Shown here: positions 11,059 through 49,277 of the stretch, one piece after another
How the letters are laid out: each line of letters begins with the position of its first letter
How positions within the stretch are numbered: position 1 is the stretch's first letter
Origin: Nitrosopumilaceae archaeon
GTDB lineage: Archaea; Thermoproteota; Nitrososphaeria; Nitrososphaerales; Nitrosopumilaceae
Length of the DNA stretch: 54,316 bases
Assembly: GCA_965200155.1 (NCBI GenBank)
Contig: CBDATR010000013.1
Location: 1-54,316, forward strand
Reading direction: 5' to 3'
The notes under the pieces: generated by a model
Database searches by the model: none
Seen by the model: only the letters and a program-made list of their open reading frames with translations
Told to the model about the DNA's origin: nothing
Program-made: the position numbers and the translations under genes

Positions 11059-11159
11059 GTATGAGTTCACGTCTTCCGGAATCTTATGCATAAATCACAT
11101 TAACTAGAACAACCTGTTCCATCAGTTATGCGTAAATTTAGACACAGGTGAACTCATAC
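11059..11159 (+). mobile_element. MITE (101-bp variant with a 15-bp scar)
   Basis: Both TIRs present; GTCGCG replaced by AGAACAACCTGTTCC. Confidence 0.95.
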
Positions 11160-11997
11160 GTGAGAAGTGCAATCTTCTCTCATTGTAGTAGTCTACATAA
11201 TCCCGGAGACTGTCATAATACCATATCTCGTTGGACTCTTAAATAAGAGTCCCCTAGTCCTCAATCGTTCTATGGAAGCGCTCCAGTTTGCCATTTGACT
11301 GCGGGGGGTATGGTCTGGAATTGATTAGTATGATGTCTTGATCCAGCAGTTCTTCCTAGAATAGTGTGGGTTTCCAGTTATTTTTGCCCTTTTATTGTCC
11401 TACGAAACACGCGCCGTTATCCGAGATGCAGGGGCGCCGAATCGTTTCATTGCCAATCTCAGTAATAGAGTGGCGTTCTCTGAGGTTGCATACTCAAATA
11501 GTACAGCTCCGACTATACACCTGGATGCATCATCTATGAGATTCAGTCCCCTGAAGCGCTCATCTTTTCATGACATGCCAGTGCCACATTGCATTGGAAT
11601 ATTTACGCTCATAGCGTACCCACTCTGACTTTGCAGGTGATGAGACTGTCGTGCCGTTCTTTTTCATTATGCGATATACTGAGCGATATATTGTAATTCT
11701 GTCTAAGCCTCTTTGCAATACGTACTACTCCGGCGGGGTCCTTGCTGTATGCTTCAGTTACCATTCGTATTTGGGTGGCGGTGATTGGTATCATGGGCCT
11801 GCCCATCTTTACTCGAGTCGTTCCCGTTCTCTGGTTCACAATCTTCGTACGTGTCTTGTTTCAGGTCTTGAGCTATGTTGGTTGTGGCAACGCCTCTTTT
11901 TGTCTTGATTCCTCTGTTATTCTATTTACCATCTGGCTTGTGCAATCTGAACTACTGTACGCCGGATCCTAAGCGGACTTACTTTTCGTACTATTGA
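11160..11997 (-). pseudogene. IS481-family element remnant, followed by a partial MITE (12001-12026)
   Basis: DDASR, SDNG, PYPPQSNGKLERF and YYNERRLH fragments with frameshifts; homologous to 35307-36363. Confidence 0.85.
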
Positions 11998-12137
11998 TCG
12001 AGATTCCGGAAGACGTGAACTCATATGCATGATTAGCTAACTTGATGTCCCTGCCGGGGCGCGCCTCCCAATCTTGCATGAGCAGTTACCGGTGCCCGGC
12101 AACACCGTTTATAAAAGGACTGTCCATCACAATGCTA

Positions 12138-25587: not shown

Positions 25588-25762
25588 CCTTGTAATGTGC
25601 AAGATCTTTCTCGGTGGCCGCAAGACGTAGGACAAGGCGGCCCATGGCCTCTGCCTTGTAATGTGCAAGTTCTTTCTTGGTAAACGCAAGTATTATGTCT
25701 CCACGTTTTATCTCTCACTCATTCTCCTTGTAATGTGCAAGTTCTTTCTTGGTAGACGCAAG
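25588..25762 (-). repeat. CRISPR-like mini-array in the IS66 transposase 5' region: 3 x 37-bp repeats, 29- and 35-bp spacers
   Basis: Repeats at 25588-25624, 25654-25690 and 25726-25762; spacers unrelated to each other; sister copies have a single unit. Confidence 0.7.
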
Positions 25763-32883: not shown

Positions 32884-33947
32884 AAAGTAAGTCCGCTTAG
32901 GATCCGGCGTACAGTAGTTCAGATTGCACAAGCCAGATGGTAAAGAGAATAACAGAGGAATCAATAGTTAGACAGCGCAAAAGAGGCGTTGCCGCAACCA
33001 AAATAGCTCAAGACCTGAAACAAGACACGTACGAAGATTGTGAACCAGAGGACGGGAACGACTCGAGTAAAGATGGGTAGGCCCATGATACCAATCACCA
33101 CCACCCAGATACGAATGGTAACTGAAGCATACAGCAAGGATCCCGCCGGAGTAGTACGTATTGCAAAGAGGCTTAGACATAATACATATCGCGCAGTATA
33201 TCACATAATGAAAAAGAACGGCACGACAGTCTCATCACCTGCAAAGTCAGAGTGGGTACACTATGAGCGTAAATATTCCAATGCAATGTGGCACGTAGAC
33301 TGGCATGTCATGAAAAGATGAGCGCTTCGAGGGACTGAATCTCATAGATGATGCATCTAGGTGCATCGTCGGGGCGGCACTATTTGAGCATGCAACCTCA
33401 GAGAAGTATGAGTTCACGTCTTCCGGAATCTTGTGCACAAATCACATTAACTGTCGCGATCAGTTGTGCGTAAATTTAGACACAGGTGAACTCATACTCA
33501 GAGAACACCGTTCTATTACTGAGACTGGCAATGAAACGATTCGGCGCCCCTGCATCTCGGATAACGGCGCGTGTTTCGTAGGACAATAAAAGGGCAAAAA
33601 GAACTGGAAACCAACACTATTCAAGGAAGAACTGCTGGATCAAGACATCATACTAATCAATTCCAGACCATACCACCCGCAGACAAATAGCAAACTGGAG
33701 CGCTTCCATAGAACGATTGAGGACTAGGGGACTCTTATTTAAGAGTCCAACGAGATATGGCATTATGACAGTCTCCGGGATTATGTGGACTACTACAATG
33801 AGAGAAGATTGCACTTCTCACTGGATATAGATAACGACGAAACACCGCTTCAGGAATAAAAAGGCGACCCAGACAATTAGGGCAAATGATGCAAAATGGA
33901 CGGAGCGAGATGCCAATGACTAGCGGACCGACTTTTCATACATTACA
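32884..33947 (+). mobile_element. IS481-family remnant with a MITE at 33406-33497 (TSD TCAGAGAA)
   Basis: WHVDW, DDASR and GKLERF fragments; end ...CATACATTACA. Confidence 0.88.
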
Positions 33948-35071: not shown

Positions 35072-35306
35072 GGCAGGAACCATTCCCTGCCGGTTTGCTT
35101 ATGCTTACTGGATTTTGTGTTATGAAAACACGCCCTAATTCAGGGTGACTTGGACGGTCACTTATGATCTCGCCCATAAGATTGTCATTCTATCCCGTAA
35201 CATCTTGACTTTTGGGTCTTCTGTCTGGCCTGTATCGACTTAAACAGTATGTTGTTGGCGTTAAGCTGAACCTTCACGCGATCGAAATAGTTACAACGAT
35301 CTACCA

Positions 35307-36363
35307 TTTAATAGTACGAAAAGTAAGTCCGCTTAGGATCCGGCGTACAGTAGTTCAGATTGCACAAGCCAGATGGTAAAGAGAATAACAGAGGAATCAA
35401 GACAGTACATCATAAGACAGCGCAAAAGAGGCGTTGCCGCAACCAAAATAGCTCAAGACCTGAAACAAGACACGTACGAAGATTGTGAACCAGAGGACGG
35501 GAACGACTCGAGTAAAGATGGGTAGGCCCATGATACCAATCACCACCACCCAGATACGAATGGTAACTGAAGCATACAGCAAGGATCCCGCCGGAGTAGT
35601 ACGTATTGCAAAGAGGCTTAGACATAATACATATCGCGCAGTATATCACATAATGAAAAAGAACGGCACGACAGTCTCATCACCTGCAAAGTCAGAGTGG
35701 GTACACTATGAGCGTAAATATTCCAATGCAATGTGGCACGTAGACTGGCATGTCATGAAAAGATGAGCGCTTCGAGGGACTGAATCTCATAGATGATGCA
35801 TCTAGGTGCATCGTCGGGGCGGCACTATTTGAGCATGCAACCTCAGAGAACGCCGTTCTATTACTGAGACTGGCAATGAAACGATTCGGCGCCTCACATA
35901 TGATACAATACCGTCTATGTCGAAATCCTACTATTACTGAGACTGGCAATGAAACGATTCGGCGCCCCTGCATCTCGGATAACGGCGCGTGTTTCGTAGG
36001 ACAATAAAAGTGCAAGAAAAGCCGGAAACCCACACTATTCGAGGAAGAACTGCTGGATCAAGACATCATACTAATCAATTCCAGACCATACCACCCGCAG
36101 ACAAATGGCAAACTGGAGCGCTTCCATGGAATGATTGAGGACAAGGGGACTCTTATTTAAGAGTCCAACGAGATATGGCATTATGACAGTCTCCGGGATT
36201 ATTTAGACTGCTACAATGAGAGAAGATTGCACTTCTCACTGGATAGATAACGGCGAAACGCCGCTTCAGGAATAAAAAGGCGACCCAGACAATTAGGGCA
36301 AATGATGCAAAATGGATGGAGCGGGATGCCAATGACTAGCGGACCGACTTTTCATACATTACA
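35307..36363 (+). mobile_element. IS481-family non-autonomous copy with ~14-bp TSD ACAACGATCTACCA
   Basis: Imperfect TIRs ending ACA; direct repeat at 35293-35306 and 36364-36377. Confidence 0.88.
35858..35966. repeat. 36-bp exact duplication flanking a 37-bp foreign insert (repeat-spacer-repeat)
   Basis: CTATTACTGAGACTGGCAATGAAACGATTCGGCGCC at 35858-35893 and 35931-35966; single copy in the three sister elements. Confidence 0.9.
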
Positions 36364-36414
36364 ACAACGATCTACCATAAAAACACAAATATCCGATAAT
36401 GCTGTACGATTACC

Positions 36415-40894: not shown

Positions 40895-41984
40895 GTATGA
40901 GTTCACCTGTGTCTAAATTTACGCATAACTGATCGCGACAGTTAATGTGATTTGTGCATAAGATTCCGGAATGTAATGTATGAAAAGTCGGTCCGCTAGT
41001 CATTGGCATCCCGCTCCATCCATTTTGCATCATTTGCCCTAATTGTCTGGGTCGCCTTTTTATTCCTGAAGCGGCGTTTCGCCGTTATCTATCCAGTGAG
41101 AAGTGCAATCTTCTCTCATTGTAGCAGTCTAAATAATCCCGGAGACTGTCATAATGCCATATCTCGTTGGACTCTTAAATAAGAGTCCCCTCGTCCTCAA
41201 TCATTCCATGGAAGCGCTCCAGTTTGCCATTTGTCTGCGGGTGGTATGGTCTGGAATTGATTAGTATGATGTCTTGATCCAGCAGTTCTTCCTCGAATAG
41301 TGTGGGTTTCCGGCTTTTCTTGCACTTTTATTGTCCTACGAAACACGCGCCGTTATCCGAGATGCAGGGGCGCCGAATCGTTTCATTGCCAGTCTCAGTA
41401 ATAGAACGGCGTTCTCTGAGGTTGCATGCTCAAATAGTGCCGCCCCGACGATGCACCTAGATGCATCATCTATGAGATTCAGTCCCTCGAAGCGCTCATC
41501 TTTTCATGACATGCCAGTCTACGTGCCACATTGCATTGGAATATTTACGCTCATAGTGTACCCACTCTGACTTTGCAGGTGATGAGACTGTCGTGCCGTT
41601 CTTTTTCATTATGTGATATACTGCGCGATATGTATTATGTCTAAGCCTCTTTGCAATACGTACTACTCCGGCGGGATCCTTGCTGTATGCTTCAGTTACC
41701 ATTCGTATCTGGGTGGTGGTGATTGGTATCATGGGCCTACCCATCTTTACTCGAGTCGTTCCCGTCCTCTGGTTCACAATCTTCGTACGTGTCTTGTTTC
41801 AGGTCTTGAGCTATTTTGGTTGCGGCAACGCCTCTTTTGCGCTGTCTTATGATGTACTGTCTTGATTCCTCTGTTATTCTCTTTACCATCTGGCTTGTGC
41901 AATCTGAACTACTGTACGCCGGATCCTAAGCGGACTTACTTTTCGTACTATTGACATAAGATTCCGGAAGACGTGAACTCATAC
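40895..41984 (-). mobile_element. MITE (TSD GAGGAACT) interrupted by an IS481 copy (40972-41956, 13-bp TSD TAAGATTCCGGAA)
   Basis: Both TSDs are visible; IS ends TGT...ACA. Confidence 0.92.
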
Positions 41985-47663: not shown

Positions 47664-49277
47664 GTATGAGTTCACGTCTTCCGGAATCTTGTGCACAAAT
47701 CACATTAACTGTCGCGATCAGTTGTGCGTAAATTTAGACACAGGTGAACCCATACCTTGCGTCTACCAAGAAAGAACTTGCACATTACAAGGCAGGGGCC
47801 ATGGGCAACATGCGCCTTGTCCTACGTCTTGCGGCCACCGAGAAAGATCTTGCACATTACAAGGAACGTGTGAGAGTATTGGAAGCATATGTGTCACGCA
47901 CCACAAAAGAAATACGAAATCTCACACAAGATTTCCAAATTATTATAAATTATGTAAATGAATTGGAAAAGAAATTAAAAGAAAAACAGGGGAAAATTGC
48001 GGTACTCACAACGCGACTTAAATATTATGAGAATGCTCACTCGCCACCATCCCTTCAATCCCTCCAGTACAAGAAGCGAAAACAGGGAGATAATAAGAAA
48101 CAGAAAGAAGCCAGTACTAAATCAGCCAAAAAGGCTGGCGCTCAAAAGGGACACAAGGGGGTTTCCCGTTCCCACAACCCCGACAGAGTAATGCGCCACA
48201 CCTTTGAGCATACTCCACAATGTGAGTGCAGCAATATAATGACAAAAAGTGGTTGGAAACAACGACGCATAACAGAATTAATACCAGCAAGAATAGAGGA
48301 GACCCTTCATGTGATAGAGATGGCTGCATGCAAGTGCGGCAAAAAACAACTAGCCCCAGCAGCGGGCGTCCCAGAGAGTGGCGGTTTTGAGATGTGGTGC
48401 CATCACTGCATTACGTGCGGAAAAGATTCCAATAAAGCGCATACCTGTAATTTCGAGGGATCTCTTCGGCCTGAATATATCGGTGGGTGCGGTAAACAAC
48501 ATAATTGCCAGGGCCGCCGATGCATGCGAATCATTTATGGAAACAATTTATGAAAAAATCACCCAGCATTCATGTGGACGAAACTGGTATATCACTGGCG
48601 GGTAAGCGTGGCTGGATATGGGGGGTGCGGGCCGAAGAGTGGATGATATACAAAAGTAGGAGTTCATATGTAGTGGGCAAATACCTGAACGGTTACCAGG
48701 GCGCGATAGTCACAGACAGGTACGCCGTGTGTTACCGGTTTGATGACGGTGGGAAGCACCAGTTGTGTTGGGCGCATTTATTGCGCGATACCAGTATATT
48801 ACATGCAGGATTCTATATCGATCCCGGTGATCAGGACGCCCGGATCAAACTTGACAACGATTTGATCCGGAGCGCACGTGAATCGCTGCGGGCCGTCCGC
48901 GCAATTACGACACTCATTTGAGGCAGGAGCAGATGCATCAGTATTGTGATGTTGATGATACTGAACTGCAAAAGAAGGTAAAAGGATTGAATAAGGCCAT
49001 ACCAGGCATGTTCGTATTCCTAGAATATGACAGTGTGGAGCCCACCAACAATCCAGCGGAGCAGTGGAACCGGTTCTGATACGCAGTGGTATTCCGCAAG
49101 ATTAGTGGTCAGATAAAGGGTGGTGAAAGGGCCATGCGCCGCATGTCCACATGTGTTCAGACATGGAGGGCTCAGGGCCTTTCTGTAATGAACGAGGTTA
49201 CTGCCAGAATGCAATTATAATTAAAAAACTGGGATGCATTCTATCTTATTATGTGATCAAAACACGTGAACTCATAC
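47664..49277 (+). mobile_element. MITE (47664-47755) fused to a 5'-truncated IS66 pseudogene
   Basis: MITE replaces the left end; right TIR ends at 49277; 37-bp repeat pair at 47756-47864. Confidence 0.9.

Follow-up and report, generated by a model that had tools for sequence, protein, structure and literature searches.

One of the closest described counterparts of the locus reported here comes from Escherichia coli, where over-expression of the type I-E Cas1-Cas2 integrase of a CRISPR system gave rise to “neo-CRISPR” loci (Nivala, Shipman and Church, 2018); according to the texts that cite this work (bioRxiv 10.1101/148544; PMC7054753), its evidence for natural events was circumstantial and concerned two other species. 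In vitro, the Cas1-Cas2 proteins of Pyrococcus furiosus integrate at paired non-CRISPR sites that lie one repeat length apart and carry a few positionally conserved, repeat-like bases, as the accessible part of that study describes (PMC6698737). In Geobacter sulfurreducens, the module of type I-U (now I-G) inserts spacers where leader and first repeat meet, with a TTN protospacer adjacent motif (PAM) in about 50% of unique spacers, in the accessible parts of the accounts of it (PMC6547450; also PMC10274657), and the available text on Streptococcus thermophilus records ectopic spacer acquisition within its CRISPR arrays (PMC7999890). Here we describe a natural case from a Nitrosopumilaceae archaeon (GenBank assembly GCA_965200155.1). 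The window, meaning the whole stretch of 54,316 nucleotides that was analyzed (contig CBDATR010000013.1), is the entire contig C13 of an assembly of 2.38 Mb in 51 contigs that is 88% complete, and it contains a unit (35858-35966) in which 36 bp of a dead IS481-type insertion sequence (IS) are duplicated around a 37-bp insert. We consider it very likely that this unit is a scar, left behind when the archaeon’s own type I-G Cas4/Cas1 fusion and Cas2 integrated a spacer off-target in a full-site reaction. The observations behind this reading are the geometry of the unit, an empty site, lengths that agree with those of the native repeat and spacers, an integrase gene that looks intact, some 70 sibling events, inserts taken from self DNA, clustering of the events and a weak target motif.

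The unit consists of two 36-nt direct repeats that are 100% identical (35858-35893 and 35931-35966) and start 73 nt apart, with the insert, of 35% G+C, between them (35894-35930); all three parts are annotated without a strand. The original prediction, made from the letters of the window, had seen in this geometry a possible natural neo-CRISPR event, reporting an exact repeat, an insert without a second match in the window and single units in three other IS481 copies. These statements held and could be extended: the 37-mer has a single occurrence, both in the window and in the assembly as a whole, and the event is one of about 70 in the genome. The repeated 36-mer, T1 in the following, lies inside a decayed IS481-family transposase frame and has five matches in the window at up to three mismatches, where none were expected from 100 shuffles; apart from the focal pair, these are the single units at 33513-33548 (plus strand, IS copy C), 41369-41404 (minus strand, copy B) and 11433-11468 (minus strand, copy D, one mismatch, from the 36-mer search of the window). 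The IS that carries the unit, copy A, spans 1056 bp (35308-36363, plus strand), is a pseudogene in several frames, and is flanked by a 15-bp target duplication, ACAACGATCTACCAT, found twice (35293-35307 and 36364-36378). Three collinear frame fragments match the IS481 transposase profile NF033577 at profile positions 58-139, 151-192 and 205-241 (E = 1.4e-6, 5.3e-4 and 3e-10; all three stay well short of the full-length cut-off), the match to rve_3 is weak, and the transposase gene is broken in every IS copy examined. The sister copy B (40972-41952, minus strand) provides the empty site: its arms of 584 nt and 433 nt are both 100% identical to copy A, and it lacks exactly 73 bp, so that the focal event was an insertion, and a recent one. 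The unit is not a canonical CRISPR array, having two repeat copies only, no leader, no hairpin, and 17 of 36 positions in common with the native repeat. The predicted folding energy of T1 is -2.9 kcal/mol, against -7.4 kcal/mol for the native repeat, whose hairpin the focal target thus lacks; the 37-mer likewise forms no hairpin (-0.4 kcal/mol).

A single CRISPR-Cas locus is present in the genome, on contig C9, and it is of type I-G. The gene for the Cas4/Cas1 fusion (Cas4g/Cas1g; C9:68770-70419; NF049935, 710.7 bits against a cut-off of 560) is followed by cas2 (C9:70569-70844; PF09827), a leader of about 166 bp between cas2 and the array, and an array of 289 repeats and 288 spacers (C9:71011-92087); csb1, csb2, cas3g and a Cas3-extension gene stand past the array on the opposite strand. 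The NCBIfam models NF049935, TIGR02621, TIGR02570, TIGR02165 and NF049934 all score above their cut-offs (Cas4/Cas1 fusion, Cas3g, Csb1 = Cas7g, Csb2 = Cas5/6g), and the Cas1 of this locus is the only one in the assembly. All residues that are invariant over six homologues are kept, among them cysteines as well as acidic and basic residues of the Cas4 and of the Cas1 part. The native repeat is 36 bp long (ATTTCCGCAGCCTAACGGTTGCGGCCTCATTGAAGG), and spacer lengths of 35 (16 spacers), 36 (85), 37 (101), 38 (63) and 39 bp (15) account for 280 of the 288 spacers, with a mode of 37; the focal duplication therefore has the length of the native repeat, and the insert falls inside the native spacer range. 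A split DDE_Tnp_4 transposase gene lies directly upstream of csb1 (C9:99400-100300; L002:7629-8526).

The geometry is far from unique to the window. Exact duplications 30-160 bp apart peak sharply across the genome at lengths of 36 and 37 bp (326 and 184 cases, counting the array); at 33-35 bp there are 4-9 cases, and at 41-42 bp there are 3-8. With the native array and 16 plain tandem repeats set aside, a filter for unique inserts left 52 units, 50 of which have periods of 71-78; among these the distribution (71:3, 72:20, 73:14, 74:7, 75:5, 78:1) has the same shape as that of the native array (71:16, 72:85, 73:101, 74:63, 75:15). The exact duplication measures 36 or 37 bp in 37 of the 52 units, and the sequences suggest that longer ones may be extended at their borders by chance and shorter ones interrupted by a mismatch. 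When up to five mismatches were allowed (at least 31 of 36 matches), 47, 23 and 13 pairs were found at distances of 72, 73 and 74, compared with about 1-8 at most other distances and higher numbers at tandem-repeat periods such as 50, 66 and 120. Together, the 50 exact and 23 diverged units with unique inserts amount to 73 events, or about 31 per Mb.

These events are unevenly placed with respect to the CRISPR-Cas locus. Five of the 73 fall on the cas4/1-cas2 side of the array, no more than 10 kb upstream of it, where 0.31 would be expected (P = 1.6e-5), and none falls within 10 kb downstream of it. Two of the five duplicate a segment of about 37 bp in which cas1 stops and cas2 starts (C9:70400-70590), so that the gap between the two genes now measures 148 bp and contains two decoy cas2 starts, both frames being still open. 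Such insertions might alter the balance of Cas1 to Cas2, and could not only stem from sloppy integration but also promote it.

To a small degree, the target sites resemble the native repeat: over 44 distinct targets, each taken in the orientation that fits better, 13.05 of 36 positions agree with it, against 11.52 (sd 0.33) for random sites handled in the same manner. The enrichment is concentrated at particular bases of the repeat, namely C5 (59% versus 29%), C11 (59% versus 31%) and C26 (57% versus 29%), and also C12. With a leave-one-out weight matrix, 66% of the targets score above the 95th percentile of random sites, and the focal target ranks in the top 0.09%. The matrix places the CRISPR-sense of the focal unit on the minus strand of the window, an orientation that is predicted rather than certain, and with which the TTC-preceded protospacer of a second T1 unit agrees (C34:37402; its insert has a 39-nt protospacer at C10:243524). 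The motif GCAATGAAAC, in which the original prediction had seen a likeness to common repeat termini, is not what ties the target to the native repeat: the native terminus is ATTGAAGG, and the similarity resides at other positions and on the opposite strand.

The inserts themselves are of mixed origin. Those of 24 of the 50 exact units match the chromosome elsewhere (E < 1e-6), most of them perfectly and over the full length, whereas none of the 288 native spacers matches the chromosome outside the array (Fisher’s P = 3.5e-23). One further insert (C25:4760-4870) has 26-28 nt in common with native spacer 58 (C9:75210-75246), whose protospacer it overlaps in an offset position; one foreign DNA seems to have been captured twice, on separate occasions and perhaps through priming. 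The 26-nt piece common to both had no match in viral or metagenome contig collections. The remaining 25 inserts, the focal one included, are without a match. The G+C content of the unmatched inserts (47.0%) resembles that of the array spacers (45.6%; P = 0.55), and that of the self-derived ones is higher (51.7%). All 50 inserts are mutually unrelated, each being unique or from a different locus, and they share no ends of the kind that a transposon or a miniature inverted-repeat transposable element (MITE) would leave. From this collection it appears that the integrase captures much self DNA. Self spacers would be lost from the array because their guides would target the chromosome, and would persist at ectopic sites because nothing is processed there.

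The sequence of events that we propose begins with the integrase taking a 36-bp stretch of a dead IS481-type transposase gene for a CRISPR repeat. The enzyme would join in the 37-bp prespacer by a staggered pair of strand transfers spaced by one repeat length (36 bp), and gap repair would then duplicate the 36 bp. Cas4/1-Cas2 would have performed this reaction, and the length of the duplicated segment would be set by a protein ruler together with a few base contacts (T3, C5, C11-12 and C26). The best of the competing explanations, which we nevertheless regard as improbable, is an undescribed, Cas-independent process that adds about 72 nt by combining a short genomic copy with a compensating duplication of the target. 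It would account easily for the fact that half of the inserts are self DNA and that they lack a clear PAM. Yet the duplication neither varies nor compensates, its length being fixed at 36-37 bp (37 of 52 units); the periods mirror those of the native array, the events cluster beside cas4/1-cas2, the targets share specific positions with the native repeat, and one insert overlaps the protospacer of a native spacer. The inserts are also not clearly rich in hairpins (mean -2.6 versus -2.1 kcal/mol for random 36-mers; P = 0.055, marginal).

A second alternative concerns the sequences that have been hit repeatedly. T1 was used five times independently, with five different inserts (C13:35858, C34:161231, C34:37402, C10:127995 and C10:326757); the close pairs at the two C34 loci are exact, and those at C10:127995 and C10:326757 have diverged (31 and 33 of 36 identical). 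A second multi-copy target, T2 (CTTGTAATGTGCAAG...GACGCAAG), occurs twice as an ectopic unit in the window: at 25654-25761 (plus strand) it is duplicated with 35 of 36 identities around a 36-bp insert, next to the remnant of a further unit upstream, and at 47756-47863 (minus strand) it lies in the other orientation, duplicated with 32 of 36 identities around a 36-bp insert that is shared with C10:210130 and C24:500844. The insert of the first of these units recurs at five other loci (C51:127, C10:210203, C10:6462, C24:97241 and C31:2838), from which it follows that the unit has spread with a repeated element, and the arrangement suggests that the T2 neo-array was carried by transposition of that element. 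Targets with 2-5 spacers are found at C9:44447-44840, C24:500844-501096 and C24:237594-237777. T2 at the second of these loci holds three different spacers, and the neo-array at the first has six repeats, with one spacer present four times and a second once, showing that repeat-spacer units can evidently be duplicated after their birth. Units with a period of 71-73 bp that look similar lie at C10:53266, C10:319716, C24:382929 and C24:472912.

It could be argued from these cases that the IS carries a purposeful mini-CRISPR array, directed against competitors or used for guidance, given that a spacer sits in the same segment of five IS copies and that T2 forms small arrays with up to three different spacers which spread with a repeated element. 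We hold this to be less probable still. The exact T1 36-mer has 39 occurrences at 36 loci, and only three of these loci are paired, the other 33 holding a single unit without a spacer; T1 is ordinary transposase coding sequence and lacks the native hairpin; and some 40 further targets are unrelated and present in single copy, several lying in genes that the insertion has broken. The high matrix ranks of T1 and of T2 (top 0.13%) explain why these multi-copy sequences became hot spots.

An assembly artefact, replication slippage or template switching leading to a local duplication is the least probable explanation of all, for although the locus lies in a multi-copy IS of a 51-contig draft assembly, the insert is present in run contigs from two studies at about the single-copy depth of its flanks, 24 of the 50 inserts have their match elsewhere in the genome, whereas slippage does not bring in unique segments of 35-39 bp from remote places, and 50 of the 52 filtered units share the period of the array. 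In run X1 the depth of the bin containing the insert was 158, against 70-88 in the flanks, and in run X3 it was 54.6 against 45-49, with one X3 contig covering 35894-35958. One of the runs is possibly the source of the assembly itself, so that the independent support amounts to one study at least. In run X9, which belongs to a third study, a contig contains an IS copy that skips exactly the 73 bp. The RNA run X6 yielded no contig over the insert bin, although contigs cannot show absence.

Several observations sit less comfortably with off-target integration by Cas4/1-Cas2 and have to be set against it. The similarity of the targets to the native repeat is modest, also at the focal site (17 of 36 positions), and the comparison with run contigs covered the focal event alone. 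No source of the focal 37-mer was found in the assembly or in viral and metagenome contigs by a search limited to exact matches, which would miss diverged protospacers. Beside the self protospacers there is no consistent PAM, and selection for one seems weak or absent: TTN was found in 4 of 24 cases in the orientation set by the matrix (five with a shifted border), and in 7 of 19-25 on either side. No protospacer was found for the array spacers either, and the native PAM could not be derived for comparison. A csx17/cas8g gene (TIGR04113), which we take to stand upstream of csb1 in the canonical type I-G operon, was not found in the assembly, although the control genomes were also without a match and the assembly is 88% complete. 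Finally, the activity of the integrase is a presumed one. With respect to the PAM, one may speculate that prespacers without such a motif are those that go astray.

The ectopic units are probably inert, because the target lacks the hairpin of the native repeat, and inertness would in turn allow self-derived inserts to survive there while being purged from the array. Only 15 of the 50 events lie in a restored open frame of at least 150 amino acids, and eight of these 15 keep the frame through the insert; other events break long frames, for example at C10:229607, C10:288031 and C10:311421. Periods divisible by three are more frequent among the ectopic units (27 of 50) than in the array (101 of 287; P = 0.017), as expected if selection filters the insertions. 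The assembly encodes an archaeal AmoA, and the public runs that contain the window include some labelled as sponge metagenome. Weak selection in an IS-rich, host-associated archaeon may be what lets the scars accumulate.

Related genomes allow a first view of how general the phenomenon is. The Cas4/1 homologue was searched for in nine congeners and a match was obtained in six; full-length homologues with 58-66% identity are present in four congeners and in one further genome of the same family, and the nearest ones found in other phyla are 38-51% identical. The target of the event at C10:229607 is present as one copy in each of four congeners. One congener (G006, 61% G+C) has a homologous native repeat of 36 bp, and an 800-kb sample of its genome contains about two units of the ectopic type (C1:867871-867980 and 1037483-1037591), roughly a tenth of the density seen here; raw counts at periods of 72 and 75 in this genome are mostly protein-coding tandem repeats, and the count given here is restricted to units with a unique insert. 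Off-targeting may be a general tendency of this lineage’s integrase.

Two features of the surroundings deserve mention in their own right. IS copy C has, just upstream of its single T1 unit, a 92-bp MITE (GTATGAGTTCAC...GTGAACTCATAC; 33405-33497) whose insertion point lies some 10 bp away from the hot 36-mer and which is accompanied by a duplication of roughly 8 bp. In copies B (40957-41967) and D (11080-12010), the IS lies at the same spot inside the MITE (TTCCGGAATCT...), and this shared position suggests that the IS481-like element has a target preference for that MITE. At the level of the assembly, many contigs of 2-9 kb (e.g., contigs C2, C6, C8, C26, C32 and C40) have 36-41% G+C, against 47% in the main contigs, and contain microsatellites and tandem repeats; they may represent host or other contamination in the bin.

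In the accessible part of the literature, off-target integration is known chiefly from the over-expression of E. coli Cas1-Cas2 and from in vitro work. Our search, which left most subscription journals outside its reach, brought up neither a natural genome described as carrying dozens of these scars nor an account of off-targeting by a type I-G system; the mechanism is thus already known as neo-CRISPR formation, while its natural scale here looks unreported. We think it likely that this host-associated, ammonia-oxidizing archaeon preserves the densest natural record yet of integrase off-targeting, its approximately 73 scars, which would be unselected because they yield no guides, forming a sample of what Cas4/1-Cas2 captures. 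If so, about half of that sample is self DNA, mostly without a PAM, and the real array holds none of it, which would offer a view of prespacer choice before selection and bear on the autoimmunity cost of CRISPR adaptation. The same record would document arrays being born, growing to 2-5 spacers, spreading on mobile elements, breaking genes and splitting the cas1-cas2 junction, and in providing concrete cases of arrays that arose from non-CRISPR sequence it bears on the origin of CRISPR arrays. It would also constitute a natural data set on DNA recognition by an archaeal type I-G integrase, through a 36-bp ruler and a few bases. The CRISPR integrase would have to be regarded as a significant endogenous mutagen in a decaying symbiont genome, and as an agent whose insertions, of 72-75 bp, break symbiont genes or make them longer.

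The scars can be set beside the systems described above and beside mobile elements. Ordinary transposons and MITEs also leave a direct repeat of target DNA on either side of the inserted DNA, but the inserts here have neither sequence nor terminal repeats in common, and the duplication of 36 bp at the focal unit contrasts with the 8 bp (MITE) and 15 bp (IS) duplicated by the elements of the window. The events in S. thermophilus, as far as the available text describes them, likewise take place away from the leader-proximal repeat, but they use genuine internal repeats of the array, whereas the targets here are non-CRISPR DNA. The gene order of Cas4-Cas1 fusion, Cas2, leader and array, along with a predominant spacer length of 36 bp in the accessible account of G. 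sulfurreducens, places that module close to the one described here; the ectopic inserts differ in having no clear PAM. The study of P. furiosus provides a parallel, in that its sites were spaced by one repeat length and carried a few repeat-like bases, just as the targets here have a spacing of 36 bp and share T3, C5, C11-12 and C26 with the native repeat; in the part of that study that is accessible, the reaction was carried out in vitro on plasmids with a repeat of 30 bp, and our data are a record fixed in vivo around a 36-bp repeat with a motif that is statistical in nature. With the neo-CRISPR loci of E. coli, in the form in which the citing texts present them, the scars share a position elsewhere in the chromosome and an insert as long as a spacer between two copies of a non-CRISPR sequence as long as a repeat, as well as the ability of units to gain spacers, which here has led to neo-arrays with 2-5 of them. 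They differ from those loci in being natural and archaeal, in belonging to a type I-G system with a Cas4/Cas1 fusion, in amounting to some 73 fixed events, and in that half of the inserts are self DNA, that mobile elements serve as hot spots, and that the cas1/cas2 junction has itself been hit.

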